From contig JAUUWG010000001.1 of the NCBI GenBank assembly GCA_030589165.1, forward strand, positions 1 through 59,778: DNA of 59,778 nucleotides, written 5' to 3'. Position numbers and translations under genes: made by a program. Source of the stretch: Desulfobacterales bacterium (GTDB taxonomy: Bacteria > Desulfobacterota > Desulfobacteria > Desulfobacterales > JAFDHS01). Shown piece after piece: positions 6,292-28,154 of the stretch. The number at the start of each line of letters is the position of its first letter. Within the stretch, counting starts at the first letter, position 1. The notes under the pieces are model-generated. The model worked only from the letters and a program-made list of their open reading frames with translations. It was not told the DNA's origin and did no database searches.

Positions 6292-6303
6292 CTTCATCAT
6301 AAT

Positions 6304-6606: not shown

Positions 6607-6636
6607 TTGACAAACACTGTCGGCTGCTATTATACT
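6607..6636 (+). promoter_or_regulatory. candidate sigma70 promoter (TTGACA-N18-TATACT) about 260 nt upstream of the KamA-like gene
   Basis: Perfect -35 TTGACA at 6607-6612. A -10 TATACT lies at 6631-6636; the alternative is TTATAC with a 17-nt spacer. Confidence 0.4.
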
Positions 6637-9806: not shown

Positions 9807-11534
9807 TTATGTGTCTTCAATAATGATTTGTGCTGTTTTGCTGCCGTTCCACCGGTTCCATCGCAGCCTGAATATGATTTGATCAAAGTTTTCTTCCAAA
9901 GGTTTGCCGGTCTCGATGTTGAAATGAATGGCATTTATACTTTTTTGTGTTTTGCCGTGAGGCTGGGTTAAAAGCATGCGTCTATGATTACCACCGACAA
10001 GTGTAGAAGAGGCAACCTTGATATTTCCGGCTGCAAAGAGCGGTTCCTGGTTGTCCGGCCCAAACGGTTGCAAGGATTCAAGCTCGTCGATCAGTTTGTC
10101 TGAAATATGATCAAAATCGAGTTCATAATCGATTAAGAGTTCAGGCACAAAATCATCGGGAGCGGTCATCTTTTCAACAATCGTTTCGAAATTTCTTTGA
10201 AATCGTTCAATATTGGCGGCCTTTATTTTCAGCCCGGCCGCCATCGGATGTCCGCCGAATTTTTCAAGGTCATCGAAACAGGCACAAAATCCTTCGTACA
10301 GATCAAATCCGGGTATACTTCTGGCTGAACCTTTTCCCGCTCCGTCTCGTATCGAGATCAGCACCACAGGACGAAAGTATCTGTTTGCCAGTCTGGAAGC
10401 GACGATTCCCAATACTCCTTCGTTCCATCCTTGTCCGGACAGAACAAGTGCTTTGTTTTCGAGCAGGTGAGGATTTTCATTTAAATGCAAGAGGATTTCT
10501 TCTAAGATTTCTTTTTCACAAGTTTGCCTGAAGGTATTTAATTTGTTCAACGTGACGGCAATTTCTTTGGCGGTGTTAAAATTTTTTTCCGTTAAAAGTT
10601 CAACGGCAATTTTTGCGTGGTCTATCCTGCCTGCCGCGTTTAAGCGGGGTGCCAGCTTAAACGCGATATCTTCCGTTCCTATTGAGTGGGTAGATAACTG
10701 CTTTTTGATTCCGCATACTTCCAGGATGGCTTTTATTCCGGGACGGGTATTCGAGTTGATTACCTCAAGGCCTGTTTTTGTGAGTATGCGGTTATCATCA
10801 ACAAGAGGAACAATGTCGGCGACGGTTCCGAGAGCAACAAGGTCGCAAATATTTTTCAGATTAGGTTCCTGGCGGTCACGCCAAAAATTCTTGTCACGCA
10901 GGTGCTTTCTAAGGCAGATCAGAAGATAAAAAGCCAGGCCGACTCCTGCAAGATTATCAAAACCGGATGTGCAATCACGGCGTTTCGGATTTACAACAGC
11001 AACAGCAGGGGGGAGGGGTTCCGAAATTTTGTGATGATCGGTTATGATGACATCTATACCGGCTTTATGAGCGGCTTTTACGGCGTCATGGCTGTCTGAT
11101 CCGCAGTCTACGGTGATGATAAGGTTTATTCCTTTCGGCAGAGCGTGATTTGGGATATGGTTTGTCTGAAGGCCGTAACCTTCTTTTGATCTGTGGGGAA
11201 TATAGTATGAAACATCTGTACCAAGATATTTGAAAAAATCATAAAGTATTGTTGTCGCTGTGATTCCGTCAACATCATAATCGCCGAAAATCAGAATCTT
11301 TTCATGATTTGTTATGGCGGTATCGATCCGGTTTACCGCAACATCCATATCTTTTATTGAAAATGGAGAGCGTATGGAATTAAGTGAAGGATTAAGGAAA
11401 ACAAATGCTTTTTCCGGGGAAATAATTTTTCGGTTAACAAGGATGGTTGCAGTGACAGGATCGCATTTCAGAGTTTTGCTGAGATGACGAACAATTTCAA
11501 TATCGGGCTGTATGATTTTTCGGTTCTTTTTCAT
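9807..11534 (-). CDS. recJ: single-stranded-DNA-specific exonuclease RecJ
   Basis: 575 aa. DHH-family motifs are GDYDVDGITAT, VDCGS and ITDHH, followed by a DHHA1 region (GGHPMAAG). Confidence 0.92.
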   Translation of the reverse strand: MKKNRKIIQPDIEIVRHLSKTLKCDPVTATILVNRKIISPEKAFVFLNPSLNSIRSPFSIKDMDVAVNRIDTAITNHEKILIFGDYDVDGITATTILYDFFKYLGTDVSYYIPHRSKEGYGLQTNHIPNHALPKGINLIITVDCGSDSHDAVKAAHKAGIDVIITDHHKISEPLPPAVAVVNPKRRDCTSGFDNLAGVGLAFYLLICLRKHLRDKNFWRDRQEPNLKNICDLVALGTVADIVPLVDDNRILTKTGLEVINSNTRPGIKAILEVCGIKKQLSTHSIGTEDIAFKLAPRLNAAGRIDHAKIAVELLTEKNFNTAKEIAVTLNKLNTFRQTCEKEILEEILLHLNENPHLLENKALVLSGQGWNEGVLGIVASRLANRYFRPVVLISIRDGAGKGSARSIPGFDLYEGFCACFDDLEKFGGHPMAAGLKIKAANIERFQRNFETIVEKMTAPDDFVPELLIDYELDFDHISDKLIDELESLQPFGPDNQEPLFAAGNIKVASSTLVGGNHRRMLLTQPHGKTQKSINAIHFNIETGKPLEENFDQIIFRLRWNRWNGSKTAQIIIEDT

Positions 11535-11993: not shown

Positions 11994-13415
11994 GTGATGA
12001 ATACAAAATATATTTATGTGAATACAATCGGCTGTCAGATGAATGTCTATGACTCCGAGCAGATGATAAAGGTCCTGAAGCCTTTGGGATATGAAAGGAC
12101 CTTGTCCCTGGAGACGGCCGATCTGATTATTGTCAATACCTGTTCGATTAGGAAAAAAGCGGAACAGAAAGCCTTTAGTTTTTTGGGCCGTCTCCCTGAT
12201 CTCAAAAAAAAGAAAGCCGGTTTGATCATCGGAATCAGCGGTTGCGTGGCACAGCAGGAGGGTAAGAAAATTCTGGACCGTTTCCCGTATGTTGATATTA
12301 TTCTCGGAACACATGCCATCGGACGGTTGCCGCAACTTGTCAATCAAATCGAAAAAGAAAGATGCCGTATTGTTGATATCAAAATGTCGGAGGAGATGGA
12401 AGAGCTTGAATGCGCCAACCGATTTCACAGTGGTGATGTTTCAAGCTTTGTAACCATCATGCAGGGTTGTGACAATTTTTGTACCTACTGTGTTGTCCCC
12501 TATGTTCGCGGCCGGGAGAGAAGCCGGGCACCTGAGAATATCATTCAGGAGATTTGCGGTCTTGTTGCGTCCGGCACAAAGGAAGTTACATTGCTGGGCC
12601 AGAATGTGAACAGTTATGGTAAAAAGGAAGGCCTTTGTTCCTTTCCCGAACTCCTGGGTCGTGTCAATGATATAGAGGGGCTTTTGAGGATCAGATTTAC
12701 GACGTCTCACCCAAAGGATCTTTCCGATGAGCTTGTATATGCTTTTAAAGACCTTGAAAAGGTATGCGGCCATTTTCATCTCCCTGTTCAGTGTGGATCA
12801 AACAGAATTTTAAAAAAGATGAACCGGAAATATACCCGGGAGTCGTATCTTGAAAGAGTGGATAAACTTCGTCAGGTACGTCCTGACATTGCAATCACGT
12901 CGGATATGATTGTCGGTTTTCCGGGAGAAACAAGGGCTGATTTTGAAGAAACTTTGGATTTGATAAAAAAAGTTGAATTCGACGGCCTGTTCGCATTTAT
13001 ATATTCAGAACGCCCGAATGCCCCGGCTTCGGCCTTTCCTGATCAAATTGACCTCAAAGAGAAAAAAGAGAGATTGCAGAAATTGCTCGATCTGCAGGAA
13101 GGGTTCACGAAAAAAAAGAACGAAGCATTAGTAGGAAAATCCGAATTTGTCCTTGTTGAGGGCTTGAGCAAAAAACAGAATGAACCCGGTTCGGAAGACA
13201 GACTGCATGATTTTCAGTTGACCGGGCGTACCTCAGGCAACAAGATCGTAAATTTTGTCGGGGATGATACCGGTGTATGCGGTAATGACGTTTTTACGGG
13301 CAGGATAGTTAACGTCAGAATTGAAAAAGCTTTTGCCCATTCACTTTGGGGTAAAGCGCTGAAGAGTGATTTCCCATGTCACGGATTGAAAGGAGATGCA
13401 ACTTATGCTGCATAG
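11994..13415 (+). CDS. miaB: tRNA-2-methylthio-N6-dimethylallyladenosine synthase
   Basis: 473 aa. UPF0004 N-domain (NTIGCQMN, NTCSIR), radical SAM CDNFCTYCVVP and a TRAM C-terminus are present. An ATG at 11997 is an equally likely start. Confidence 0.92.
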   Translation: MMNTKYIYVNTIGCQMNVYDSEQMIKVLKPLGYERTLSLETADLIIVNTCSIRKKAEQKAFSFLGRLPDLKKKKAGLIIGISGCVAQQEGKKILDRFPYVDIILGTHAIGRLPQLVNQIEKERCRIVDIKMSEEMEELECANRFHSGDVSSFVTIMQGCDNFCTYCVVPYVRGRERSRAPENIIQEICGLVASGTKEVTLLGQNVNSYGKKEGLCSFPELLGRVNDIEGLLRIRFTTSHPKDLSDELVYAFKDLEKVCGHFHLPVQCGSNRILKKMNRKYTRESYLERVDKLRQVRPDIAITSDMIVGFPGETRADFEETLDLIKKVEFDGLFAFIYSERPNAPASAFPDQIDLKEKKERLQKLLDLQEGFTKKKNEALVGKSEFVLVEGLSKKQNEPGSEDRLHDFQLTGRTSGNKIVNFVGDDTGVCGNDVFTGRIVNVRIEKAFAHSLWGKALKSDFPCHGLKGDATYAA

Positions 13416-13902
13416 GGTAAGCATAGCGGGCTTGACCATGGACCAGGCCTCAAATACGCCGATTCTGATATTGAAAACCGTTGAAGGAGATGAGTCGATT
13501 CCCATATGGATCGGCTTGCTTGAAGCCGCTTCCATAGCTTCGGCCCTGCAGAACATCAATTTTGACCGACCGATGACCCATGATCTTTTTAAAAATTTTA
13601 TGAATATTGTAAACATTGAACTCGCCAAGGTTGAAGTGTGTGACCTGAAGGATAGCACTTTTTATGCAAGGATCTATTGTACTTCCGGTGACAAGGAGTT
13701 CAGTCTGGATGCCCGACCCAGTGATGCAATTTCATTAGCCCTTCGATTTAACGCTCCCATATATGTAGAGGAAAAGGTTATTAAAAAATCCGGAATGGTG
13801 GATGCCGGCCCTGAAGTTGTGGACAAAAGTGAAGAAGGGAAAAAATGGGCTGAATATCTTGAAAAACTTTCTCCTGAGGATTTCGGTAAGTACAAAATTT
13901 AA
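13405..13902 (+). CDS. bifunctional nuclease family protein (BFN/DUF151)
   Basis: Motifs are PILILK, IPIWIGLLEAASIA and RPMTHDL. Start set at the ATG at 13405, 9 nt after the AGGAG RBS; the track start at 13396 is too close to the RBS. Confidence 0.8.
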   Translation: MLHRVSIAGLTMDQASNTPILILKTVEGDESIPIWIGLLEAASIASALQNINFDRPMTHDLFKNFMNIVNIELAKVEVCDLKDSTFYARIYCTSGDKEFSLDARPSDAISLALRFNAPIYVEEKVIKKSGMVDAGPEVVDKSEEGKKWAEYLEKLSPEDFGKYKI

Positions 13903-13932
13903 TTCTCTTTCGCTCACTTTTCCAGGAGTATA

Positions 13933-14568
13933 ATGATTGATCTGCACACACATACCATTTTCAGCGACGGCGTCTTAATCCCCTCCGAGCTTGCAAGGCG
14001 TGCGGAGAATATGGGATTAAAAGCAATAGGTTTTACCGATCACGGTGATTCATCCAATATCGATTTTATTATTCCCAGGATAGTCGCGGTGGCTGAAGAA
14101 CTGAACGACGTTTTAAAGATAAAGGTCATTCCAGGGATAGAGATTACACATGTTCCTCCCCCTTTAATTGCTGATATTGTCGTAAAGGCACGCGATCTGG
14201 GTGCAAAAATTATTGTGGTTCATGGGGAGACAATTGTCGAGCCCGTTGCTCCCGGCACCAATATCGCTGCACTTAAAGCGGATATCGATATCCTTGCCCA
14301 TCCCGGTTTAATCACTGAGGAAGAAGTTTTACTGGCAAAAGAAAAAGGGGTTTTTCTGGAGATATCAGCCCGAAAGGGGCATTCCCTGACCAATGGGCAC
14401 GTTGCACGCCTGGCCCGAAAAATCGGAGCAAGGCTTGTCATTGATACGGATGCACATGCTCCCGGCGATTTGATTGATGGTGCCATGGCAAGGCGCATTG
14501 TTTGCGGTGCCGGATTGACGGAAAATGATTTTGATATGATGCAGAAAAATGCAGCCTGGTTTTTATGA
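13933..14568 (+). CDS. PHP-domain (histidinol phosphatase-like) hydrolase
   Basis: 211 aa. N-terminal DLHTHTIFSDG is present, with later HG and DTDAH metal-ligand motifs. An AGGAG RBS lies upstream. Confidence 0.7.
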   Translation: MIDLHTHTIFSDGVLIPSELARRAENMGLKAIGFTDHGDSSNIDFIIPRIVAVAEELNDVLKIKVIPGIEITHVPPPLIADIVVKARDLGAKIIVVHGETIVEPVAPGTNIAALKADIDILAHPGLITEEEVLLAKEKGVFLEISARKGHSLTNGHVARLARKIGARLVIDTDAHAPGDLIDGAMARRIVCGAGLTENDFDMMQKNAAWFL

Positions 14569-14572
14569 TTTT

Positions 14573-14878
14573 TTATCGGCTTTTCTGCAGACTGCTCCAT
14601 AGGGAAAGTGCAAAATTGAATTTATTTACGACAAGGGCGGCGCATGATAGAAGCCTGACGGAGTCCGGGGTGCGACGCAAAGAGCAGGAACGCCTTGCAT
14701 GAAAGAACATCTGCTCAAAGTCATTTGAAGCAAAGGCAAAAATGGCCTTTTTTCTGTGGAATTCGGCCTTTTCTTCTATATCGATCAGAATTCCGAGGTC
14801 GGTTTTGCATCTGTGGCACACCCTTTTTCCGATATATTTGGCATGGCACGCAGGACATCGTTCCATAATAATTTTCAT
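14573..14878 (-). CDS. zinc-ribbon protein (101 aa), last gene of the Hsp70 module
   Basis: N-terminal CPACH..(10)..CHRC is followed by a helical region. It is co-directional with the Hsp70 gene and 60 nt downstream of it. Confidence 0.55.
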   Translation of the reverse strand: MKIIMERCPACHAKYIGKRVCHRCKTDLGILIDIEEKAEFHRKKAIFAFASNDFEQMFFHARRSCSLRRTPDSVRLLSCAALVVNKFNFALSLWSSLQKSR

Positions 14879-14938
14879 CCTTTGCGCTTTTTTGCGTTCT
14901 TGGCGGTAAAAAAATAACCGCCAGGCGCGTAAAGATTT

Positions 14939-16693
14939 TTATTCAAGATAAAACAGGATATCCTCCAATTCTTCCCGTAACTTCCGGGCCTTATCAAGAT
15001 CTTTTTCTTTTACGGCGTCCCTGATATCTTCAATAAGATTGATAATTTCATCACGATCCTCAGATGGAGTTGCATCAAGTTGTGACTCGGCCTGGTTTAT
15101 TGTTTCGGCCAGATCGGCCGGCATTCCCCGGTCAATCTCTATCTCTGTTTCCGAAGATACTTCCGCTTCTTCTACAACGCCTTCCGGGCTGCCCCACTCT
15201 GACTCAATTCGCTCTTTTGAGGCAGATAATTCCAGGTCTGTAAATCGGGAAAAGGCATTTTCGATAACCGCGTTAATCTTTTTGCCTGTTTTCTTTTCAA
15301 CAGCCTGAATTTTCAGTATACCGTTCAGATCCAGATCAAAGTTAAGGATGATAACGCTTCCCGCCGGAGCCCTTGTTAAATTAAAAATATACTTGCCTAA
15401 CAGGATGTTATCAAGAGCATCCGGATTTTCTCCTTGAAAGATCTTTATTTCAACCTTTTCCTGGTCGTCTACCATAGTATAGAATGCTTCACTTTTGTTT
15501 GCCGGCAACTTGGTATTGCGGTGAATAAGAGGAACGAATTTGTGCATGTGAGTGATACCGTCTAATTCGTCGATAGCCGATGTGCCGAATGTATACGGTG
15601 TTATATCCAGCAAGACGCTTGAAGAATCGATGCCCATCTCCCTTCCTGCCTGTATTGCGGCGCCAATGGCTACACAAAGATCCGGATCAATCTCACTATG
15701 GGGAATAATGTTAAATTTTTCCTCCAGCATATCGGAAATTTTAGGGATTCTTGTGGACCCTCCTGCCAGGATTATGGTGTCAATGGCCGAAGGGAGCGAT
15801 GATGCGTCCTTAAGTGCCTTGTTTACTGACTCCATTGTTCTTATCAAAGCATCTTCTATCATCTTGTCGAAGTCGGTGCGGGGAAGCTCGAAAGAAAGAT
15901 GAATATCTTTAAAACCTTTTTTGCCGATATGGTCTTCTTCTATTCCGGCATAGGGTTCGGAAGAAAGAGTGATTTTGGCTTTTTCCGCCGCATTTTTCAG
16001 TCTGGCCATGACCACGGGATCACCGGCCACGGTAAGTTTGAGTTCTTTTTCAATATGTTCGACAAGAAGATCAACAATCTTTTGATCAAAATCATCGCCG
16101 CCGAGATGGTTGTCCCCCGTGCTTGAAAGGACTTCCACAATTCCTTGTTCAATTTTGACGATTGATACGTCAAATGTCCCTCCGCCAAGGTCATAAACCA
16201 GAATTCTCTGATTCTTCGGGTTGGTGCTTTCATAAGCAAGGGCCGCTGCCGTAGGTTCATTTATAATCCTTATTACATTGAGCCCGGCAATCGCACCTGC
16301 ATCTCTTGTAGCCTGCCGTTGTGCATCCGTAAAATATGCGGGAACGGTAATGACCGCCTTTGATATCTTTTTGTCTAACAGTTTTTCCGCTCTTTCCTTT
16401 AATGCTTTAAGAATAAAAGCGGAAATTTCCTGGGGCAGGTAGCTTGAATCGTTCATCTGAAACTTTGTTTCAGAGCCCATGAACCTTTTTACCGAAAGGA
16501 CAGTGCGCTCCGGAGCAATTGCAGCCTGATTCCTGGCTTCAATACCAGTAATAATTTTTCCCTCGTTATCAAGTCCCACACAGGAAGGAACGATTCCGTT
16601 ATCCTTGTCTTTTAGTACTTTTGCATTCCCGTCGATAATGAAGGCAATTTCTGAATTTGTAGTTCCAAGATCTATGCCGACTACCGGTTCCAT
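14939..16693 (-). CDS. Hsp70-family ATPase (non-canonical DnaK paralog)
   Basis: 584 aa. Motifs are GIDLGTTNS, DLGGGTFDVSI, ILAGGSTRIP and the SBD-beta LDITPYTFG. The C-terminal tail is acidic and ends FYLE. An AGGAG RBS lies upstream. Confidence 0.9.
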   Translation of the reverse strand: MEPVVGIDLGTTNSEIAFIIDGNAKVLKDKDNGIVPSCVGLDNEGKIITGIEARNQAAIAPERTVLSVKRFMGSETKFQMNDSSYLPQEISAFILKALKERAEKLLDKKISKAVITVPAYFTDAQRQATRDAGAIAGLNVIRIINEPTAAALAYESTNPKNQRILVYDLGGGTFDVSIVKIEQGIVEVLSSTGDNHLGGDDFDQKIVDLLVEHIEKELKLTVAGDPVVMARLKNAAEKAKITLSSEPYAGIEEDHIGKKGFKDIHLSFELPRTDFDKMIEDALIRTMESVNKALKDASSLPSAIDTIILAGGSTRIPKISDMLEEKFNIIPHSEIDPDLCVAIGAAIQAGREMGIDSSSVLLDITPYTFGTSAIDELDGITHMHKFVPLIHRNTKLPANKSEAFYTMVDDQEKVEIKIFQGENPDALDNILLGKYIFNLTRAPAGSVIILNFDLDLNGILKIQAVEKKTGKKINAVIENAFSRFTDLELSASKERIESEWGSPEGVVEEAEVSSETEIEIDRGMPADLAETINQAESQLDATPSEDRDEIINLIEDIRDAVKEKDLDKARKLREELEDILFYLE

Positions 16694-16711
16694 GATGCAT
16701 CTCCTATTCGT

Positions 16712-17551
16712 TTATTCGTTGACAACAACCTCTGCTGTTTTAAGAACTTCATCTTCACGTACAAAACCACTTATCCGCTCTTCTATCACCACTCCTTTTT
16801 CCATTTCAGGGTTGGAGCCTTTATCCACCGCCTTCATCGTTTTTGGATCAAAGGGTTCTCCTATCGTTTTTACGGGATGAATATCAAACAACGCAAGGGT
16901 ATGGTCAAAGCGCCTTATGGCCATTTCATATCCTTCTATAATACCCTCTATTTCTTGACAACGGCGCCTGAAAAAGCTTTTTGATTCTGCTGCGGCAAGA
17001 CTTGCCTTATGTCCTCGGATCAAAGCGTCTCTTATATCAAGGAAAGGCATGACCGTTTTTTTTTCACTGGAGCGTCTTATCCTTTCTTCAAGTTCCGCAA
17101 GCCCTTTGGATCTGTTTTTAAAAAAATCCGCCGATTTTTGAAAAAGCTTTGCCGAATCTTGAAAAAGGTTTGCCGAATCTTTATATGCATCGATAAGAGG
17201 ATTGAGAGCCTTTAATGTTTTATTCTGCTCCCTGTTTTGCATCTTGATCTCCTGTCTTAATGCGGAAAACTCGGATAAAAGCGTATAAAGATCGCATGAG
17301 TCCATTGTGGTCCCTTCTCCTGGGGGCGGAGAATCCGGAAGATCTTTAAGCCAGAATACAAAATCATCCAAGGCCTTTTTTTTCCAGTCAAAAAGACTCT
17401 CGTCTTTTATCTCGGGTTCTATTCTTTTTGAAAGAAAATCAACAAGGTGCTTTATCAGGGGGAGTATCAGGTTTTTGTCGATTTTATCAATAAAAATTGT
17501 GACTTTATCACGAAAGCCTATAACCCATGGGGGAATTTTTAAAAAACGCAT
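16712..17551 (-). CDS. GrpE-like nucleotide exchange factor with a long N-terminal extension
   Basis: 279 aa. The C-terminal half is GrpE-like (PFLDIRDAL.., GEPFDPKTMKAV, GFVREDEVLKTAEVVV). The start codon abuts the stop of the J-like gene. Confidence 0.75.
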   Translation of the reverse strand: MRFLKIPPWVIGFRDKVTIFIDKIDKNLILPLIKHLVDFLSKRIEPEIKDESLFDWKKKALDDFVFWLKDLPDSPPPGEGTTMDSCDLYTLLSEFSALRQEIKMQNREQNKTLKALNPLIDAYKDSANLFQDSAKLFQKSADFFKNRSKGLAELEERIRRSSEKKTVMPFLDIRDALIRGHKASLAAAESKSFFRRRCQEIEGIIEGYEMAIRRFDHTLALFDIHPVKTIGEPFDPKTMKAVDKGSNPEMEKGVVIEERISGFVREDEVLKTAEVVVNE

Positions 17552-17848
17552 TTATTTTTTTGCCTCCTGAATCAGTTCCTGCAATCCGGCCCGTCGTCTT
17601 TTTAAAATTTTGGCTTTTGCCAGGGAAAAAAGGGCATCCTCATAATCTTTAGCGTTTAACGCCGCAAAAATTTTTGCTTTTATGCGGCTTCGCTCATCTT
17701 TGATCGCTTCATATGCTTCCGTGATTTGTTGAAATCTTGCCGGATCTTTTTCAGGTGTATGTTTTTTTACCAACTGAATGTAACTATTTCTGATCTCTTC
17801 ATTTGACGCATCAAGTGAAAGACCGAGACAGAGATAATATGTTAACAT
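17552..17848 (-). CDS. J-domain-like protein lacking the HPD tripeptide
   Basis: 98 aa. YYLCLGLSLDASNEEIRNSYIQLVKKHTPEKDP aligns to the J-domain consensus, but HPD is replaced by HTPE. There is no Gly/Phe, zinc-finger or C-terminal domain. Confidence 0.7.
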   Translation of the reverse strand: MLTYYLCLGLSLDASNEEIRNSYIQLVKKHTPEKDPARFQQITEAYEAIKDERSRIKAKIFAALNAKDYEDALFSLAKAKILKRRRAGLQELIQEAKK

Positions 17849-17917
17849 GAAAATCTCCTGTTATGAAAATGGGGGGTTCGTTCTGACTTCGGCCGGTATC
17901 AGGGTGAACACACAGGT

Positions 17918-20596
17918 TTATCTTTTTTTCTTGCCGTATAAAAAAATCCGGGCCTCATGGGAGAGTTGGGGAAATTTTTTGGGATCAATTAATTTACTCA
18001 ACATGTCTAATTCAAGACGTGATTCCGGATTGGATCTGATCAGTTGCCTTATACTTTTTATGACATAGTCAGGTGCACCGCGAAAACCTGAACCATCGAC
18101 AAACGATTCAAGTCCTTCAACCCATTTTTCTAAAATACCCTCTTCAACCCCCGTATCCATCAAATCCGGATCGGATCTTAAAATGTCCAGCATTTCAAAA
18201 AAAGTTTCCAGCCCTTCTCCAAGACTTTCGACAGGAAATATATCGTCATCATAGTCTTCATAGTCGTCGTCAAACAGATCATCATCGAAATATCCGCCGC
18301 CAAACATATCAAAGTCAAATCTTTCAAGTGCATCTTTCAAAGGGCCTGCCGCATGTTTTGACAGCCTTCTTGATATCGTTCTGAGCTCTTCCTTCACGGG
18401 ACCTTCAGTCTGATCGATGAGATCGTTAAACAGGTCAAAATCAATGATTTCTCCTGTTATATGTCGTATGGCAACAAGATAGAAGTTCAAGACCAGACGT
18501 TGATTTGATGTTGCTTTTTTTATTCTGCGTTGAATCTCTTTCTTTATCACATTAAACGAATCCGGCGCAAAGATAAGATCAAAAAGAGGTATAATCTCTG
18601 AATCATTAAAGTTCTTGAGAATATTCGTACTGTTTTTGAAAAAAACCGGGGCGATTTCTCTGGAAGGCAAAATCGACAAATATTCTTTCTCCAGGGGCAT
18701 AAGGAGTTTCATAATGTCGGATGATGAGAATTCTTTTGCCTTTTTTAATCTGTTGTTAAAAATCTTTTCGATACTTTTTAAAATGTTTTTTTTTGAATCC
18801 ATATCCCGCGTTTTTATGTCCAGGATAAGAAAAGCCAGTATTCTCAGTTGCCGGGTCGGGGAAAGATCTCTAAGTTCATCTTCTATAAGTTTTTTGGCAT
18901 CTTTTTTATGGGTAAGAAGTTGAAATAAAATCAGTTTTTCGATGATAAAAGGAGCAACTTTTTTACTGCCGATTTTTTCAGCTTTTTCAATATCTCGTAT
19001 TACCAGATGGGGGTTGCCACGATTAATATTCTTATCCCCGGATATCAGCAGAGAAAGCTCATGCCGGTCAATGACCCTGTTGTCATGGGGTGCCCGCTTC
19101 ATAGCTTCCGCAAGAATATTTTCCGCTTTCCGGAAGGCATTTTTTTCATAATACAGGGATGCAAGTTCAAGGCAGGGATATGGATCATCCGGAAAGTATT
19201 CGGCCATGGAAGAAAGGATCGTTTCAACTTTATTTTTAGCGGGCCGTGAGAGCCGGGGCAGTGCTGCAAGGAGTTCGTATCCCTTTTTGTTGTACGGATC
19301 GAGCCTGATGCTTTCCAGGGCCATATCGATCAACATTATTTCATTATCGTCAGACGTTATCCCCATAAGCTTCTTGTATCGTTGAAATCCCATACCGTGG
19401 CTGTAACGTTTCAGATTTGTACGTTTCTCATACACATTTTCCACGGCATATTCCAGGATTATGGAACGTGCCATATCTCTTTGCTTTGAATCGGAAAAGT
19501 CATTTTCTAAAACAGAGAGGTATTTCCCAACGGCTGAAAAAGGGTCCGTAAAATTCAAAAGTCGGGTCTTGGCTAACAGAATGGCGGCATGCTCCTTTGG
19601 TAAAAGATCTCTAACCATGGTTTGAAATTGATAATCCGAAATCATCTCCTGGTTCGCCATGTTCCAGATAATCTGAAGAATATGGGACCTTGCCGCCGTG
19701 GGGTCTTGGGGATAAACAGCCTCCGCAAGTCTGCAGATGGATGCTTTTGCCTGATCAAACTTTTTTTGCTCAAGTTCGTAAAGCAGGTCGGCGACATACT
19801 TTTCCTTATTTACGGGGCCGTCCCACAGGCATGAAAGCATGGGTATCGCTCCTGTTTTTTCCATATCTTCATCTTTATCAACCCTGATTTGTTTCAGGCT
19901 TTCCATCACGGGTTTAAGGGGAAAATCATCCGGAATCATTGAAAGTGCTCTTAACATATCCTTGTCGTCTTCCCTGTAGAAAGATACCATGGCCCGGCAA
20001 AACATACGAACATGCGCAAAACAAGAAGATCGGCCTATGGGTTTAAGGGCTTCAAGGGCTTCTTCCCAGTTTCCGCTGTTCATCAACAAAACCGCCTTTT
20101 GGGCTGGTATGGCATCACACCGCAGGGGCAGGGATTCATCAAGTTTATTTAACAATTCCCATTTCCCGCTTGTAAAAAGGCGGTTTGCAAGTAAACGTTC
20201 TGTTTTGGCTGACCGGTCGTTTGCCTGAATGTATTCGGCATATGCATCAAATGCCTCTTTGTTTGGACATGTAGATATATATGCTTCCATGTCGCCTTCA
20301 GAGACTTTTTTAAATTCAGGCATGTATTCGCGAGCCTGTTTCCTTACCGTATCGGCTTCAACGAGCATCCCCTTGTCTCGCAGTTGACTTTCCCGCATAA
20401 GATATGACCTGAAAAGAAAAGCATTTATTTCATCGGAGAAACTACCTCTTTTACCTGCAACCTTAAAAAAGGAGATGGCATCACGGGGTTTTCCTGCCTC
20501 AAGGTTCTCTTTCCCCTTTTCAACAAGCTGATCGAAATTCATATTTTGAAGTTTTTTTTGTGCTTCTTTTCGTTGCTTTTTCTTTTTTGGGGCCAT
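17918..20596 (-). CDS. large TPR-like / helical-repeat protein of unknown function (892 aa), first gene of the Hsp70 module
   Basis: Long clean ORF. The termini are basic (MAPKKKKQRK.., ..YGKKKR) and there is an acidic patch FDDDLFDDDYEDYDDDIF. Composition is helical and I recognise no catalytic motif. Confidence 0.7.
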   Translation of the reverse strand: MAPKKKKQRKEAQKKLQNMNFDQLVEKGKENLEAGKPRDAISFFKVAGKRGSFSDEINAFLFRSYLMRESQLRDKGMLVEADTVRKQAREYMPEFKKVSEGDMEAYISTCPNKEAFDAYAEYIQANDRSAKTERLLANRLFTSGKWELLNKLDESLPLRCDAIPAQKAVLLMNSGNWEEALEALKPIGRSSCFAHVRMFCRAMVSFYREDDKDMLRALSMIPDDFPLKPVMESLKQIRVDKDEDMEKTGAIPMLSCLWDGPVNKEKYVADLLYELEQKKFDQAKASICRLAEAVYPQDPTAARSHILQIIWNMANQEMISDYQFQTMVRDLLPKEHAAILLAKTRLLNFTDPFSAVGKYLSVLENDFSDSKQRDMARSIILEYAVENVYEKRTNLKRYSHGMGFQRYKKLMGITSDDNEIMLIDMALESIRLDPYNKKGYELLAALPRLSRPAKNKVETILSSMAEYFPDDPYPCLELASLYYEKNAFRKAENILAEAMKRAPHDNRVIDRHELSLLISGDKNINRGNPHLVIRDIEKAEKIGSKKVAPFIIEKLILFQLLTHKKDAKKLIEDELRDLSPTRQLRILAFLILDIKTRDMDSKKNILKSIEKIFNNRLKKAKEFSSSDIMKLLMPLEKEYLSILPSREIAPVFFKNSTNILKNFNDSEIIPLFDLIFAPDSFNVIKKEIQRRIKKATSNQRLVLNFYLVAIRHITGEIIDFDLFNDLIDQTEGPVKEELRTISRRLSKHAAGPLKDALERFDFDMFGGGYFDDDLFDDDYEDYDDDIFPVESLGEGLETFFEMLDILRSDPDLMDTGVEEGILEKWVEGLESFVDGSGFRGAPDYVIKSIRQLIRSNPESRLELDMLSKLIDPKKFPQLSHEARIFLYGKKKR

Positions 20597-20842
20597 ATTT
20601 TTTTCTCTTCTGTTTTATCATGATATGAACTTGTAAATAAATTGAACAATCAATATACTGCTTTGGTAATGGCGATGAGCTGATGATAAGATAAAATATA
20701 AATTTTATACTGTATTATCAAGATAATACTAACACATTTTTTAAAAAAATCAAAGAATTGTACAAAATATCCGCTTTTGGTATGCAGCAAAAAAAACAAT
20801 GGATTGATTTTATGTATTTCAAAAATTCAAGCACTAATTTCT

Positions 20843-23800
20843 ATGTCGAACGTTAAGCTTTTTACCGGTAACCGATTGGAAAATCTTTCCGAGGCGTTGG
20901 CCGAGGTTTTAGATAAACCCCTTGCATTTCCCCTGGATGAGGAGGTAATTGTTGTACGGAACAAGGCTATGGAGCAATGGGTATCAATGGAACTTGCCCG
21001 CCATCATGGTATCTGTGCAAACATCAGCTTTTACTCTCCCTATTCCTTTGTTAATGAAATTTTGCGCAAGGTATCCCCCCGGGGTGTTTCCGAAGGCCTT
21101 TCCTTTGATCCCGAGGTAATGACCTGGAAGATCATGAAGGTCCTTCCCACCTTAATTTCGGATAAGAGCTTTGAGAGAATAAGTATTTATCTGGGAAAAA
21201 ACAAAGATGGGAACAGGTGCTTCCAGCTTGCAGAGCGCATTGCCGAGACTTTTTGTCAATATCTTGTTTTTCGTCCTCAAATGATTTTCAGGTGGGAAGA
21301 AGGCAAAGACAACCACTGGCAGGCCAGGCTGTGGAGAGAACTGGTTAAAGGCAATGAAGGCAAGCACCAGGCTGGACTTTTCAAGGCTTTTATTGAAAAA
21401 AATGAAAAAAACCCGCTTCGATCCTCCATGAAGATAGAGGAGGACTTGCCTGAAAGAATTTCGGTTTTCGGTATATCTGCATTGCCGGGCTTTTATATGC
21501 GGGTTTTTGCCGCTATATCCGCCTTTACCCGGATAAATTTGTTTTTCATGTTCCCCTGCAGGGAATATAGGGGCGATTCTCTTTGGGACCAGGACAAAGT
21601 GCCCGGAACTGCAGAGAATAAAAAACAAAGCGGTTCTGAAAAATCTTTGCATCAGGATTATTCATACCTTGAGCCGGGAAACAGCCTGTTTGCATCTATG
21701 GGTACCCAGGGCGGAGAATTTTTTGATCTGGTCAATGGGTTTGACTGGGATCGAATCGAAATTTTCAATGATTCTGACCGGAAAACTCTGCTTGAATGTA
21801 TTCAATCCGATATTCTGAATCTCACGGAGAGCTGCCGGCGATCAAACGGTAAAACGATTGTTGAAAAGAACGACGTCTCAATACAGGTACACTCATGCCA
21901 TGGTCCCATGCGGGAGATCGAGGTCCTGCAGGATAGACTTCTTGCAATGTTTGAAAATAATCCTGACTTGAAGCCGGGAGATATCCTGGTTATGACGCCG
22001 GATATTGAAACCTATGCTCCCTACATTCAATCCGTCTTTGATCTGCCTTTTTCCGATTCAAGACGGATTCCTTTCTGTATTGCGGATCCAAGTGCCCAGG
22101 CGGAACACCGTATTATTGACAACTTTTTTGCTCTTTTGGATTTTGCGGGAGGCCGGTTTGAAGTATCCGGGGTATTATCTCTTCTTGAATCACGGCATAT
22201 ACGGGAAAAGTTCGGTTTATCTGAAAAAGATTTTGAGCTTATCGAAAAATGGGTCAGTGAAACGCGGATCAGATGGGGAATCGATGGACAAAGCCGCAGG
22301 AATTTTGGGCTGCCGGGTATTGAGGAGAATACTTGGAAAGCGGGTTTCTCAAGGCTTTTGCTGGGTTATGCTATGCCCGGACGGCAAAAACATATGTTTT
22401 CCGGCATACTCCCTTATGATGATATGGAGGGGGACGAAGCCGAAGTGCTGGGAAAATTTGTTGAATTTGTAAATCAGATTTTTTCCTCTGCAAAATCTCT
22501 TGAACAAAAACAAATGCCGGGTGAATGGTCTGATATCCTGACGGGTCTTCTTGAAAATTTTTTTGAATCGGATGAGAATACGACCAATGAAAATACAAGC
22601 CGGGAAATAGGCTTAATCCGCCGCACGTTAAGCAGTTTGCGCAACATATCCGATTTGTCGGGTTTTGATGAAAAGATTGATTTGAATCTTATCAAAAATT
22701 ATTTGAGACAAAAGTTTGAAAAACAAGGATTCGGTTTTGGTTTTATTCCCGGCAGCGTGACATTTTGCGCAATGTCGTCCATGGGGGGTATTCCCTTTAA
22801 GGTTATCTGCCTTGTCGGTATGGATAGTGGTGCTTATCCGGGGGAGTCAAAACCCCACGGTTTTGATCTTATGGCGATGAATCCCGAACCGGGTGATCCT
22901 TCCCGCCGGAATGACGACCGTTATGTTTTTCTTGAGACCCTTTTGTCAGCCATGCAGAAACTTTATATCAGTTACATAGGGCAGAGCATTCGGGACAACA
23001 GTGTTATCCCTCCTTCCGTGCTGGTTGGTGAAATCATGGATTACATTGAAGAGAATTTTGAGATTCCCGGCATCAATATTCGCCGACACATGGTTACAAA
23101 ACACCGTCTTCAGGCGTTCAGTCCGGTGTACTTTAAGGGCAGTGCAGGGCCGGGTAATTCAGGCAATGATCCGGATAGGGATGAAAAGCTTTTCAGCTAT
23201 TGCCTGGAAAACTTTCAGACGGCCCGGAGCATTGGTCATGACCGGGAGCATCAGGTGCCTTTTGTCGCCGGTGGTCTTAAGGAACCTGAAGATGAATTCA
23301 AAAGGGTTGATCTGGTGGAACTTTGCCGTTTTTTCAGCAATCCGGCAAAGTTTTTGATTAATAAGCGTCTTGGATTTTCTCTTGAACAAGGGACTTTGAT
23401 TCCTGAAGAAAGAGAGGCATTTGAAATAAAAGGACTTGAGAAGTATGTGCTTGAACAGATGCTTATGGAGAAAAGACTTGAAGGAGAGAGTTTAAAAGAA
23501 TTTCAAGCCTCAGCAATAGCTGCAGGCCGGCTTCCCCATGGAACCATGGGGGAATGCGTGTTTGATCGTCTGGCATGGGGGGTTGATCGGTTTGCCCATT
23601 GGATAAAAGGGTATAGGCATGGGAACCCCTTGGAGCCTGTTGAGGTGGACCTTGATTTGTCGGGTTTCAGGTTGACCGGCAGAATAAATCCCGTTTATCC
23701 TGAGAGATTAATCCATTACCGGTATGCAAAGGTAAAAGCAAAAGATATTCTCAGGATATGGATTCATCACCTGGTGCTGAACTGCATGGATACAAAAAAC

Positions 23801-24220
23801 CTTAAAACAGGCGACTACCCTGAAACCAGCCTGCTTGCGGGCCTTAAGCCAGACGGCCGGGGTGAACCCGTCTTTGCCGCCTGGGAATATCCGCCTGTAA
23901 AAGAGAGCAGACAGATCCTTGAAAATCTGCTTGAAAAATACCGCCGGGGACTGGTAAGGCCCCTTTCATTCTTTCCGGAATCCTCCATGAAATACGCCCG
24001 GCTGGTCATTGAAAAAAACAAGCCCGCCCAAGAGGCTCTTCGAGGTGCTGAAAAAATCTGGAAGGGAAATGATCACCAGCAGGGAGAATGCAGCGACTTG
24101 TATTATCAGCGTTGCTTCGGCAATACGGAGCCGTTGGATTCAAATTTTGAAAAAATTGCCATTGAGATTTTCAGCCCCATATTAAGGAATCAGAAGGAGC
24201 TGGATAAACCGGGAAAGTGA
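20843..24220 (+). CDS. recC: exodeoxyribonuclease V gamma subunit
   Basis: About 1126 aa of RecC-like sequence (LFTGNRLENL.., HSCHGPMREIEVL, RRNDDRYVFLE). The start was moved to the ATG at 20843. The stop codon lies inside a repeat element. Confidence 0.9.
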   Translation: MSNVKLFTGNRLENLSEALAEVLDKPLAFPLDEEVIVVRNKAMEQWVSMELARHHGICANISFYSPYSFVNEILRKVSPRGVSEGLSFDPEVMTWKIMKVLPTLISDKSFERISIYLGKNKDGNRCFQLAERIAETFCQYLVFRPQMIFRWEEGKDNHWQARLWRELVKGNEGKHQAGLFKAFIEKNEKNPLRSSMKIEEDLPERISVFGISALPGFYMRVFAAISAFTRINLFFMFPCREYRGDSLWDQDKVPGTAENKKQSGSEKSLHQDYSYLEPGNSLFASMGTQGGEFFDLVNGFDWDRIEIFNDSDRKTLLECIQSDILNLTESCRRSNGKTIVEKNDVSIQVHSCHGPMREIEVLQDRLLAMFENNPDLKPGDILVMTPDIETYAPYIQSVFDLPFSDSRRIPFCIADPSAQAEHRIIDNFFALLDFAGGRFEVSGVLSLLESRHIREKFGLSEKDFELIEKWVSETRIRWGIDGQSRRNFGLPGIEENTWKAGFSRLLLGYAMPGRQKHMFSGILPYDDMEGDEAEVLGKFVEFVNQIFSSAKSLEQKQMPGEWSDILTGLLENFFESDENTTNENTSREIGLIRRTLSSLRNISDLSGFDEKIDLNLIKNYLRQKFEKQGFGFGFIPGSVTFCAMSSMGGIPFKVICLVGMDSGAYPGESKPHGFDLMAMNPEPGDPSRRNDDRYVFLETLLSAMQKLYISYIGQSIRDNSVIPPSVLVGEIMDYIEENFEIPGINIRRHMVTKHRLQAFSPVYFKGSAGPGNSGNDPDRDEKLFSYCLENFQTARSIGHDREHQVPFVAGGLKEPEDEFKRVDLVELCRFFSNPAKFLINKRLGFSLEQGTLIPEEREAFEIKGLEKYVLEQMLMEKRLEGESLKEFQASAIAAGRLPHGTMGECVFDRLAWGVDRFAHWIKGYRHGNPLEPVEVDLDLSGFRLTGRINPVYPERLIHYRYAKVKAKDILRIWIHHLVLNCMDTKNLKTGDYPETSLLAGLKPDGRGEPVFAAWEYPPVKESRQILENLLEKYRRGLVRPLSFFPESSMKYARLVIEKNKPAQEALRGAEKIWKGNDHQQGECSDLYYQRCFGNTEPLDSNFEKIAIEIFSPILRNQKELDKPGK

Positions 24221-24351
24221 GCTAAAGTGAGCTAAAATTTGAAGTGAGCTAAAGTTAATGAGTCGCTTCGCTCCGTTTTTTTATATATAAAATTGATCCA
24301 ATTCCTCGACTTTAGGCACTTTAGATCACTTTAGTCACTTCACACTTTTTT
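24202..24351 (-). repeat. CACTTTAG-array / GCGAAGC-core intergenic repeat, copy 6 (full, with GGATAAACCGG end)
   Basis: Structure is GGATAAACCGGGAAAGTGAGCTAAAGTGAGCTAAAATTTGAAGTGAGCTAAAGTTAATGAGTCGCTTCGCTCCG..AAATTGATCCAATTCCTCGACTTTAGGCACTTTAGATCACTTTAGTCACTTCACACTTTTTT. Confidence 0.9.
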
Positions 24352-24370
24352 AAGAAACTAACTATAAAAT

Positions 24371-27300
24371 ATGCCGGAAAATAATTTTGATCTTTTAAAC
24401 AGTCCTCTTGATGGCACGAACCTGATTGAAGCAAGTGCGGGCACGGGGAAGACATTCACCATTACCGGGCTTTTCCTCCGACTGCTTCTGGAAAAAGGTC
24501 TCTTGGTCGAGAATATACTTGTGGTCACTTTTACCGACGCTGCAACACAGGAGTTGAAAGAGAGAATCCGAACGCAGCTGCGGCAGGCAATTGAGGCATT
24601 TTCCAAAGGAGAGAGTGAAGATCTGTTCCTGAGCGGTCTTGTGAAGCGAGATGCTGATACAAAGCGTGCATTAAAATCCTTAAGGGATGCGGTCCGGTCT
24701 TTTGATCAGGCTGCGATATTTACCATACACGGATTTTGCAGGAGAATGCTTATTGAAAATGCCTTTGAAAGCGGATCGCTTTTTGACACCGAACTGATTA
24801 CCAACCAGGAGGATTTAATAAGAAAAATCGTTGATGATTTCTGGCGGAAACATTTTTACGAGCAGTCCGTCTTGTTTCTTAATTATGTTATGGCAAAGAA
24901 ATTAAGTCCGGAAAATTTTTCTTCTCTTTTAAGGGAAGCTTTTCAGCCGGATCTAAAGGTCATCCCGGAACTCGACCCCCCTGATTCGTCTGATACGTTA
25001 GAAAAAGATTTCAGGAAAGCTTACGAAGCGGTTTCAACGTCCTGGGAATTAAACCGGACGGATGTTGAAAACATTCTTATCAGCCATAAGGGATTGAATC
25101 GGACGAGGTACAAAAAAGCAAATATCCCGGTCTGGATCAGCCGCATGGACGACTATCTGGCATCCCAACATAACAACGTGGTATTGTTCAGCGGGTTTGA
25201 AAAATTTACTTCAAGTCTACTTCAAGGCTCCGTAAAGAAAAATCATACTGCCCCGGATCATCCGTTTTTTGATTGCTGTGAAGCGTTAAAAGAATCGAGT
25301 GAACGGCTGGTGAAGCTTTTTCAGGACCGCATCACGGCTTTAAAGAAAAAACTCTTTGTCTATGTGCAGAATGAGCTGGCAGTAAAAAAACAAGAGAAGA
25401 ATGTCCAGTATTTTGACGATCTTTTACTCAAACTCCATACGGCATTGAATAATAAGTGCGGAGAAAGGCTTGCCGATGAGATAAGAAAGAGATTCAAGGC
25501 TGCCCTGATAGACGAATTCCAGGATACCGATCCGGTTCAATATGCCATATTCAATACGGTTTTCGCCAGGGCAGACAACAGCATCCTGTTTCTGATCGGT
25601 GATCCGAAACAGGCCATATACGGGTTCAGAGGCGCTGATATCTTTGCCTACATGGATGCGGCAAAGCATGTGACATCAAGATACACCCTGAAGACGAACT
25701 GGCGTTCCGATCCACGGCTCGTTGAGGCCATAAACACCCTGTTTGAAAACGCGGATACCCCCTTTGTTTATCGTGAAATTCCGTTTTATCCGGCTCTGGG
25801 GACACAAAGGGAAGGGTTTGAATCTTTAAGGATAAACGGAAAAGAGGAGCTGCCGTTGCAACTGTGGTATCTTGATGCCGGTAAAATTACGGGGCAGGGG
25901 AAACCTCTCTCCAAAAGCGTGGCAAGGGACCGGATTGTCATGGCTGTTTTAGCTCAGATTTCCAGGCTTTTAAATCTTGGGGTTCAGGGCAAGGCGTCTC
26001 TTGGGGACAGACCGTTGAAACAGGGAGATATCGCCGTCCTGGTGAGGAGAAACGCTGAGGCGGACAAGATTCGGAAAGCCTTGACGGATTTAAATATTAA
26101 CAGTGTCGTTTACAGTACGGAAAACATTTTTGATTCTCTGGAAGCCCTTGAGATGGAAATCCTCCTTTCCGGTATTTTAAATCCCGGTAATGAGGCACGC
26201 CTTAAGGCCGTTCTTGCAACGGACATGATGGGGCTTTCAGGAGAAGATCTGGAAAGTCTGACGGAGGATGAAATTGCATGGGAAGAATGGCTGGTTAAAT
26301 TTAAGGAATATCATGACGTGTGGAGTGGACACGGCTTTATAAGGATGTTCAAGCATTTAATACAAAATGAAAAGATTCTGGGTCGTCTGATGGCTTTTTC
26401 CGATGGGGAGAGACGGAGTACCAACCTTTTGCATCTTTCGGAAATTCTTCATCAGACCGGCATTGAAAAAAAAATGGGCATGCCGGATCTTTTAAAGTGG
26501 CTCTCCCGGCAACGAGATCCTGGTTCGCCGCGGCTTGAGGAACACCAGCTTCGTCTTGAAAGTGACGAGGATGCCGTGAAAATCGTAACCATGCACAAAA
26601 GCAAGGGGATGGAGTATCCTGTTGTATTTTGTCCCTTCACATGGAGCAGCTCAAGGATAACAGGGAGAAAAGACCATTTTACATTCCACGATGAACACGA
26701 AAACATGAGGCTGACCCTTGATATCGGTTCTGACAATATGGACAAAAACATCAGCTTTGCCGAAAGGGAATTGCTGGCGGAGAACCTGCGTCTGATGTAT
26801 GTTGCTTTAACACGGGCAAAAAACAGATGTTATCTGGTCTGGGGTCGTTTTAACGAGGCTGAGTCCTCTGCCCCGGCGTACCTTTTTCATCAGGCTCAAT
26901 CAGAAGATGCGGAAGATAGGGTCGGCTCTACATGTCAAAGGTTTAAAACCTTAAGCGACCAGGATCTGCTAAAGGAATTGAATTTTATCAAAGACAAGTC
27001 CCATGGGAGCATAATCGTCTCTGAATTGCCTGAAGATCAGGGAGAAAAATATCTGCAGCCCTGGGAGAATACCGGAGAATTGATCTGCCGTGAATTTTCC
27101 GGAAAAATAGATCAAACCTTTCGTATTTCAAGCTTTTCGTCCCTGGTCTCCAGACGACCTCAGCTATATGAACCGACGGATTATGACGAAAAACTCCAAA
27201 TCAACGGTTCTGATCGTGATGCATTTGAAATTCCTTCCGGCAGGGAGGAACTCGAAGGTATTTTCTCTTTTCCAAGAGGGGCAAGGGCAGGAACTTTTAT

Positions 27301-28143: not shown

Positions 28144-28154
28144 AGGAATAAATC

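Follow-up and report, generated by a model that had tools for sequence, protein, structure and literature searches.

In this work we have analysed a window of 59,778 nucleotides from a Desulfobacterales bacterium (GenBank assembly GCA_030589165.1, contig JAUUWG010000001.1; all positions are those of this window), and within it a block of five co-directional minus-strand open reading frames (ORFs; 20596-14573) that a first-pass annotation, made from the letters alone, had singled out as a non-canonical Hsp70 module. Our results suggest, with a probability that we put at about 0.8, that the five genes encode a dedicated five-component Hsp70 system, consisting of an Hsp70 paralogue, a GrpE-like exchange factor, a J-like protein in which the His-Pro-Asp (HPD) motif is replaced, a large solenoid of the tetratricopeptide repeat (TPR) type and a small zinc-ribbon/TPR protein. 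The five genes travel together as one co-inherited cassette.

From 5΄ to 3΄ the cassette encodes the 892-aa solenoid, the 98-aa J-like protein, the 279-aa GrpE-like protein, the 584-aa Hsp70 and the 101-aa zinc-ribbon protein, separated by gaps of 69, 0, 18 and 60 nt. All five ORFs lie on the minus strand where the first-pass annotation had placed them, and the two spacings that it had pointed out, a J-like stop codon directly abutting the GrpE-like start and 18 nt between the GrpE-like and Hsp70 genes, are both borne out. The genes and the features within them that are discussed below are as follows:

17918..20596 (-), 892-aa all-α TPR-like solenoid (ORF, Pfam, AlphaFold2 (AF2), Foldseek)
20537..20596 (-), basic N-terminal tail of the solenoid, beginning MAPKKKKQRKEAQKKL (median net charge +8 over aa 1-20, 51 orthologues)
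18977..19309 (-), most conserved solenoid block, aa ~430-540 (invariant columns D433 to D535), a candidate binding site
18146..18301 (-), disordered acidic loop of the solenoid, aa 766-817, holding DDDLFDDDYEDYDDD (AF2; median net charge -16 in orthologues)
17552..17848 (-), 98-aa J-like protein (Pfam DnaJ, orthologue and PDB alignments)
17750..17758 (-), TPE triplet, J-like aa 31-33, at the canonical HPD position (PDB and orthologue alignments)
16712..17551 (-), 279-aa GrpE-like nucleotide exchange factor (Pfam GrpE, PDB match, alignment)
14939..16693 (-), 584-aa Hsp70 paralogue (Pfam, NCBIfam, alignments, AF2)
15128..15190 (-), disordered acidic lid linker of the Hsp70, aa 502-522, replacing part of lid helix B (AF2 confidence, pLDDT, <50)
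14573..14878 (-), zinc-ribbon/TPR accessory protein, ~97-101 aa (weak Pfam match, orthologue alignment, PDB profile search)

A co-inherited cassette of the Desulfobacterales

A scan of one genome per species yielded 64 loci, all of them from Desulfobacterales-type organisms once legacy labels are set aside, and colinearity was counted in the 48 loci that have at least 3.9 kb of downstream DNA. All five genes are colinear and on one strand in 45 of these 48, over a range of 27-90% identity and between unrelated flanks, an arrangement that is far beyond chance. This colinearity, maintained despite such divergence and such different surroundings, indicates that the cassette is a self-contained, long-lived unit. 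When the flanking ORFs were clustered, no family besides the five was common to more than 11 of the 64 loci, and the recurrent families were ABC ATPases, Mrp-like ATPases and similar, or the result of local synteny. The Hsp70 is the most conserved of the five (55-96% identity across loci, median 66%), followed by the J-like protein, the GrpE-like protein, the zinc-ribbon protein and the solenoid, with median identities to the window proteins of 52%, 48%, 47% and 37%, respectively.

Searching 1.8 billion representative proteins with a solenoid profile returned 201 relatives at E<1e-30, and the organisms named among the solenoid homologues all belong to the Desulfobacterota (Desulfonema, Desulfobacter, Desulfocicer, Magnetomoraceae and a metagenome-assembled genome (MAG) of the Dissulfuribacterales), the phylum that the first-pass annotation had rightly suggested for a neighbourhood survey. 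The five that were inspected among the more distant relatives, at loci L069-L072 and on one JGI contig, have solenoids of 788 to 1091 aa. J-like, GrpE-like and Hsp70 genes follow the solenoid gene in all of them; where sequence or gene calls extend past the Hsp70 a small ORF comes next, a zinc ribbon is present in both of those that were read (L069 and L070), and the flanks are unrelated housekeeping genes. With the 45 colinear loci, these relatives confirm the co-conservation implied by the self-contained module of the first-pass annotation. No plasmid or phage copies of the cassette were found.

The three exceptions among the 48 loci are an insertion (L007) and two degraded remnants (L062 and L068). 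At L007 (Desulfobacterales bacterium HSG2, 12700-20845) the solenoid gene is split from the J-like gene by an 8-kb block containing a HAD/IGPD fusion, a class I/II aminotransferase, a histidinol dehydrogenase, a DUF6847 gene and an FMN reductase; at no other locus is the cassette split. The remnant at L068 (2105-2701) consists of a solenoid fragment (aa 434-540) and then a zinc-ribbon-like ORF, the three chaperone genes being missing, and that at L062 (10001-11571) of a solenoid fragment only. At L001 (Desulfonema magnum, 150-9000) and L003 (900-7900) the cassette adjoins dense toxin-antitoxin/restriction islands (HicAB, PIN, PemK, Fic, a type ISP restriction enzyme, ParE/Phd). Since these islands are absent at the other inspected loci, we take them to be a feature of those large genomes and not of the cassette.

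The Hsp70 and its two cofactors

The 584-aa protein belongs to the Hsp70 superfamily: it matches Pfam HSP70 (PF00012) with 471 bits (cut-off 20.6, E 5e-141), and its AF2 model (pLDDT 83) has a nucleotide-binding domain (NBD), the β part of the substrate-binding domain (SBD-β) and a helical lid. Its best NCBIfam match is the DnaK model PRK00290 (8.5e-153), and the closest solved structures, with end-to-end alignment, are those of Geobacillus and Mycobacterium DnaK. The protein nonetheless scores below the DnaK equivalog cut-offs (510 versus 648 for NF001413; 499.3 versus 822.55 for TIGR02350) and also below those of HscA (399.9 versus 708.55 for TIGR01991; 395.6 versus 620 for NF003520), and no HscC model is among its NCBIfam matches. 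Its alignments to E. coli DnaK start only after residue ~80, and pairwise alignment shows that the 24-aa NBD insert of E. coli DnaK, the Gupta Hsp70 indel typical of Gram-negative DnaK, is absent. The orthologues are named DnaK in some pipelines; the RefSeq/PGAP label for that of D. magnum is only 'Hsp70 family protein'. As judged from these comparisons, the Hsp70 of the cassette is derived from DnaK, yet is no DnaK equivalog.

The motifs of the NBD and SBD-β are retained, as the first-pass annotation had stated. Alignment to DnaK shows that the catalytic residues (D8, T11-N13, K70, E171, D194, T199, D201), the equivalents of DnaK R167, N170 and T173 involved in interdomain coupling together with a VLLD linker, and the residues of the hydrophobic pocket (I401, F426, V436, I438) are all kept. 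Because none of the catalytic and coupling residues has been lost, the protein is predicted to have the activities of DnaK, namely ATP hydrolysis and the clamping of hydrophobic stretches of peptide. The lid is a different matter. The latch is lost (R467 is replaced by Ala and K548 is missing), and in the AF2 model the disordered segment at aa 502-522 comes after a short helix (aa 486-499) and leads into a confident three-helix bundle (aa 526-583) that runs to the C-terminus. The disordered linker is variable in sequence, with a median net charge of -7 across orthologues. The divergent acidic C-terminus described by the first-pass annotation is thus misplaced, since the acidic part is this internal linker and the C-terminus itself is a highly conserved helix (...EDILFYLE). 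We also considered this invariant ending as an EEVD-like TPR-binding tail; in the AF2 model the last lid helix extends through this segment, leaving no free tail, and the alignment places it in the canonical lid; the idea was downgraded.

The GrpE-like protein matches Pfam GrpE (PF01025) over aa 104-278 (79.4 bits, cut-off 25.8, E 3e-22), and the best PDB match of its C-terminal β domain is Geobacillus GrpE (4ani, 6.9e-6). It remains below all NCBIfam GrpE equivalog cut-offs (best score 36.5 versus 137). An extra N-terminus, as reported in the first-pass annotation, is indeed present and carries a conserved 'W-K-x2-AL-x-DF-x2-WL-x2-LP' motif; its length is not the ~130 aa given there, but ~100 aa ahead of the Pfam domain, ~60-80 aa more than in an ordinary GrpE. 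In its long helix, at aa ~124-138 (17138-17182, minus strand), the window protein has a 15-residue insert, SANLFQDSAKLFQKS, that resembles an internal duplication and is absent in ~80% of the orthologues.

The J-like protein has the J-domain fold (Pfam DnaJ, PF00226; 42.7 bits, cut-off 27.8, E 6e-11) at aa 1-60, followed by a conserved basic C-terminal helix ('KRRRAGLQELI'; '..RRRxGLxELL' in orthologues) with a median charge of +4 in orthologues. DnaJ models are matched over the J domain only, and with this 98-aa polypeptide as its sole J protein the cassette has no full-length DnaJ with G/F, zinc-finger and C-terminal domains, in agreement with the first-pass annotation. The description of it as a small J-like protein holds for size and fold, and misses that the protein is more than short: the HPD motif, which in J domains is invariant, lies between helices II and III and is required to stimulate the Hsp70 ATPase, is replaced by TPE. 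The register is given by HMMER alignments to DNAJA1 and DNAJA3, with KKH-TPE-KDP opposite KKY-HPD-KNP; the J domain of DnaJ was also aligned. In 49 orthologues the triplet at this position is TPE (31), SPE (12), PPE (5) or PPD (1) and in no case HPD, and the distant relatives have PPA or PPG. A match to the NCBIfam model 'ActJ cold adaptation protein' (20 bits versus a cut-off of 150) was set aside; nothing usable on it was found in the literature searched.

The two TPR-type partners

The 892-aa protein has a single Pfam match, one TPR_19 unit at aa 460-508 (37.8, cut-off 25, 2.5e-9), and no catalytic domain was found in it by Pfam or NCBIfam. Its AF2 model (pLDDT 83) contains only helices, with disordered segments at aa 240-253 and aa 766-817, and Foldseek searches against the PDB retrieved only generic long TPR superhelices (IFT-A, Ski3, Ctr9, Naa15, APC subunits) at a probability of 1.0 and a TM-score of about 0.2. 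The TPR match and the all-helical model identify it as a TPR/α-solenoid scaffold. It belongs to a family of ~880-940-aa proteins, and its 89 homologue clusters are unnamed or labelled as hypothetical or generic tetratricopeptide repeat proteins; it matches no characterised family.

The most conserved part of the solenoid, the block at aa ~430-540 ('...FPDDPYPCLELASLYYxKNAFRKAENIL...APHDxRVIDRH'), holds 21 of the 53 invariant positions of a 22-sequence alignment. The basic termini and the acidic patch (DDDYEDYDDD region) that the first-pass annotation had noticed are both in the sequence. In the orthologues these charges are conserved in composition and not in sequence, the C-terminus being mildly basic, and in the distant relatives of ~790 aa everything past the acidic loop is missing.

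The fifth protein, annotated at first as a 101-aa zinc-ribbon protein, does have a zinc ribbon (CPAC...CHRC, aa 8-24; C-P-x-C...C-x-R-C in orthologues) whose four cysteines (C4, C7, C17 and C20 in alignment numbering) are invariant in 24 orthologues, although its match to Pfam Zn_ribbon_11 is below threshold (19.8 bits, cut-off 24, E 6e-4). That description has to be amended in two ways. About two TPR motifs occupy profile positions 33-93 (~60 residues), as seen in a profile search against the PDB, and the true start is probably Met5, since the orthologues begin MERCP. The best natural PDB matches of the TPR part are the TPR domains of Hop/Sti1 (3e-5 to 1e-3), and consensus TPRs were also matched; because the sequence is close to the TPR consensus, we do not read the Hop/Sti1 matches as a specific relationship. 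No zf-DNL domain, the domain of Hep1/Zim17, was matched at E<=0.1, where only weak generic zinc-ribbon models appeared. An apparent homology between this protein and the solenoid was an artefact of single-linkage clustering caused by the L068 remnant (direct BLASTP, E = 0.25).

The cassette and the housekeeping dnaK genes

Could the cassette be the organism's own dnaK-grpE set in an unusual gene order? The DnaK model as best match of the Hsp70 and the name DnaK given by some pipelines are what such an explanation would predict. We nevertheless regard it as extremely improbable, and the contrast with the housekeeping dnaK locus drawn in the first-pass annotation as justified, given that neither the Hsp70 nor the GrpE-like protein reaches any DnaK or GrpE equivalog cut-off, that PGAP offers only a general family name, that the cassette has no full-length DnaJ and its sole J protein no HPD, that the 24-aa insert is missing and the lid latch lost, and that the family is limited to one lineage at the level of an order. 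In the window we found no second Hsp70, GrpE or J gene.

Further evidence comes from a published census in which DnaK was identified by RPS-BLAST to PRK00290 (PMC11019930, supplement). It lists one DnaK each in the module carriers D. limicola, Desulfocicer vacuolatum and Desulfatirhabdium butyrativorans, and also one in further Desulfobacterales in which the module is not in evidence (PMC11019930), so that the count is the same with and without such evidence, which argues against a housekeeping role. For D. magnum 4be13 (L001/L016; 8.0 Mb), which carries the module Hsp70, the same census gives 0 DnaK of the PRK00290 type (PMC11019930). Since D. magnum has the module Hsp70 and yet a count of 0, this Hsp70 is evidently not what the census counted, and the simplest reading is that module Hsp70s went uncounted and that a canonical DnaK is encoded separately in the carriers. 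As for the zero itself, either the canonical dnaK of D. magnum is disrupted or was missed in the assembly, or this organism relies on its module Hsp70. The evidence for a separate canonical dnaK in carrier genomes is indirect.

Genomic surroundings

On one side the cassette is flanked by recJ, a DUF4911 gene, a miaB-like radical-SAM gene, a bifunctional nuclease and a PHP phosphoesterase, and on the other by the divergent genes recC-recB-recD; both flanks are ordinary chromosomal genes, and in base composition the cassette block is not distinct from its surroundings. The recC-recB-recD operon is complete (20777-30017, plus strand) and recJ (9807-11534, minus strand) lies 3 kb past the opposite end. 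We infer no functional link of the cassette with recBCD or recJ, because this neighbourhood is not shared by other loci. The region between the divergent genes is where a promoter is presumed from position only:

20597..20776 (no strand), divergent intergenic region between the cassette and recC

Our promoter scan gave one promoter-like site (20721..20693, minus strand), the number of sites being no higher than in shuffled sequence, and the promoter/terminator and Rfam scans revealed nothing beyond chance expectation. The spacer that separates the J-like gene from the solenoid gene has a weak match to the Rfam family Mu-gpT-DE RNA (17846-17904, minus strand; 22.6 bits versus a gathering score of 49, E = 0.1), most likely due to chance, since the length of this spacer is not conserved at other loci. 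All five window genes are in one reading frame, the spacers being multiples of three; as other loci show overlaps and different spacings, this looks coincidental.

Discussion

The carriers of the cassette are sulfate-reducing Desulfobacterales, which it would equip with an additional Hsp70 chaperone, specialised and served by an exchange factor of its own. In specialised Hsp70 systems a generic ATP-driven clamp is redirected to a single task, Fe-S clusters in the case of HscA/HscB and import in that of the mitochondrial motor. The parts list found here is an unusual one for bacteria: a J cofactor without the HPD motif that is regarded as indispensable for Hsp70 activation, a lid on a flexible acidic tether, and two TPR-type neighbours. 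Its interest lies mainly in the combination of the HPD-less J-like cofactor with obligate TPR partners. The module comprises at least 201 clusters at 50% identity and is present in strains of Desulfonema, Desulfobacter and Desulfocicer that are in culture. Should the complex form as we propose, it would be a compact, genetically defined system in which to study how an Hsp70 is targeted and triggered without a canonical J domain, and it would point to a further cell-biological process common to many Desulfobacterales.

How might the five proteins work together? We propose, with moderate confidence, a division of labour in which the solenoid is the platform, the J-like protein the bridge, the Hsp70 the clamp, the GrpE-like protein the reset and the zinc-ribbon/TPR protein an accessory. 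The solenoid would give the Hsp70 machine its specificity, with the conserved TPR block at aa ~430-540 as the main docking or client-binding site. The J-like protein would place its J fold on the NBD-linker interface of the Hsp70, where the equivalents of DnaK R167, N170 and T173 are kept, and anchor its basic C-terminal helix to the solenoid, possibly at the acidic loop, so that both proteins together may act as a TPR-J co-chaperone in two pieces. With TPE, SPE or PPE in the position of HPD, the J-like protein is probably a tether, or a weak or conditional stimulator of the ATPase, and no free-running trigger. A lid held by a flexible acidic linker instead of a rigid helix B would suit large or folded clients and could leave the lid bundle free as a docking module. 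The GrpE-like protein, which has the fold of an exchange factor, would reset the Hsp70. As fifth subunit, the zinc-ribbon/TPR protein may stabilise or regulate the Hsp70 in the manner of a Hep1/Zim17 escort, or may cap the solenoid. The oppositely charged elements of the system, the solenoid N-tail (+8), the solenoid loop (-16) and the Hsp70 linker (-7), are consistent with this proposal.

Several points weigh against this proposal. The 0 canonical DnaK listed for D. magnum (PMC11019930) counts in favour of the housekeeping alternative. The 8-kb block of his genes at L007 shows that tight co-transcription is not obligatory, and a search for natural fusions (Rosetta stone) among nine unusually long solenoid homologues found TPR motifs only. 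The HPD-less J domain might be inert or inhibitory, the trigger of the ATPase residing elsewhere, for example in the housekeeping DnaJ. Finally, by sequence an adaptor role of the solenoid cannot be told apart from a client role.

This last point is the substance of the main rival explanation, in which the solenoid would be the obligate client, a self-associating α-solenoid assembled or disassembled by its private Hsp70, much as clathrin is uncoated by Hsc70/auxilin or as IscU, a client encoded in the same operon, is served by HscA/HscB. The solenoid gene is first in the operon and always present, no other conserved gene is a candidate client, the solenoid evolves faster than the chaperone (median identity 37% versus 66%), and self-association could be mediated by its tails of opposite charge and its long stretches of disorder, which are highly charged. 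We consider this explanation unlikely, though it is the strongest of the alternatives: nothing points to self-assembly of the solenoid, the almost invariant block at aa 430-540 is what would be expected of a partner-binding site, and TPR solenoids such as those retrieved by Foldseek (Ski3, Ctr9, Naa15, IFT-A) are typically scaffolds that bind other proteins. Less probable again, and distinctly speculative, is that the cassette is an Hsp70 motor with no HPD J-domain trigger, in which the HPD-less J-like protein as a tether, the GrpE-like protein, the zinc-ribbon/TPR subunit and the solenoid would form a stable holo-complex devoted to remodelling a single large assembly, and which would have arisen independently in the Desulfobacterales; it would then be a prokaryotic counterpart of the mitochondrial presequence translocase-associated motor (PAM), of the ribosome-associated complex or of auxilin-clathrin uncoating.

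A role in biological conflict was also weighed, namely that the cassette is an anti-phage or abortive-infection system in which Hsp70, GrpE and DnaJ/TPR proteins are regulatory chaperones, as in the GAP1-N2 GTPase systems. Hsp70 and GrpE with DnaJ- or TPR-fused partners do occur in those GTPase-centred systems (Kaur et al. 2020, PMC7159879), and in D. magnum and one Dissulfuribacterales MAG the cassette lies amid toxin-antitoxin/restriction genes. It lies, however, among housekeeping genes in the window and at L069, L071 and L072, no GTPase, STAND NTPase or effector domain is in or beside it, and its flanks are not conserved; PADLOC (PADLOC-DB) matches were insignificant (E 5e-4 to 1e-2, <17 bits), the Hsp70 is highly conserved, and the distribution, without plasmid or phage copies, looks lineage-restricted and not patchy. 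Such a role is accordingly very unlikely. We favour a dedicated Hsp70 system built on a solenoid platform.

With the DnaK-DnaJ-GrpE machine the cassette shares an Hsp70 with intact ATPase, linker and SBD-β pocket, an exchange factor with the GrpE fold and a cofactor with the J fold, and the best sequence matches of its Hsp70 and GrpE-like protein are the DnaK and GrpE of Geobacillus. It differs in its scores below the equivalog cut-offs, in the absence of a full-length DnaJ, in the change of HPD to TPE/SPE/PPE, in an Hsp70 with an acidic linker instead of part of lid helix B, without the latch and without a disordered C-terminal tail, in its two extra TPR-type subunits and in its lineage-restricted distribution. 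The pairs HscA-HscB, HscC-DjlC (YbeV/YbeS) and MxDnaK2 (SglK)-GrpS are alike in that a paralogous Hsp70 with an altered lid stands beside its own private cofactor. HscA and HscC are not known to need GrpE, and the HPD motif is kept in HscB and DjlC; a large TPR solenoid or a zinc-ribbon/TPR subunit is not known from any of these pairs. The operon of MxDnaK2, grpS-dnaK2, consists of two genes, one of them for a GrpE paralogue dedicated to it, and no J protein is adjacent (PMC11019930). The first-pass annotation had named Myxococcus sglK/grpS and E. coli hscC/djlC as precedents without the five-gene architecture.

In the nature of its parts the cassette resembles the PAM motor, which is composed of mtHsp70, Mge1, Pam18/Pam16, Tim44 and Zim17/Hep1 (in part after PMC9695410): both combine an Hsp70 and a GrpE-type factor (mtHsp70 and Mge1) with an HPD-less J-like protein (Pam16), a small zinc-binding protein (Zim17/Tim15/Hep1) and a non-enzymatic scaffold by which the Hsp70 is positioned. 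This is analogy and not homology, since the scaffold of the cassette is a TPR solenoid and not Tim44, and its zinc-ribbon protein does not match zf-DNL. Moreover, PAM has the HPD-bearing Pam18, whereas the cassette encodes no such partner and no membrane component. Eukaryotic TPR-J and TPR co-chaperones (DNAJC3/p58IPK, DNAJC7, Hop/Sti1, CHIP) similarly combine TPRs with a J domain or with Hsp70 binding; in the cassette, in contrast to the TPR-J proteins, the TPR and J parts are on separate polypeptides and the Hsp70 has no free EEVD-like tail. The GAP1-N2 GTPase conflict systems, for which actinobacteria and firmicutes are the main reported sources (Kaur et al. 2020, PMC7159879), also have Hsp70, GrpE and J/TPR proteins in one neighbourhood, but the cassette has no GTPase, FNIII-repeat protein or effector and was negative in PADLOC.

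We found no description of the cassette in a survey of DnaK paralogues (PMC11019930), a review of Hsp70 diversification (PMC13580251) or the paper on conflict systems (PMC7159879), and nothing relevant in a literature search on Desulfonema magnum with DnaK. The cassette belongs to none of the known classes of specialised Hsp70 systems against which it was compared, and it is set apart from them by its combination of a GrpE of its own, a J-like protein without HPD, a zinc-ribbon/TPR protein and a large solenoid.

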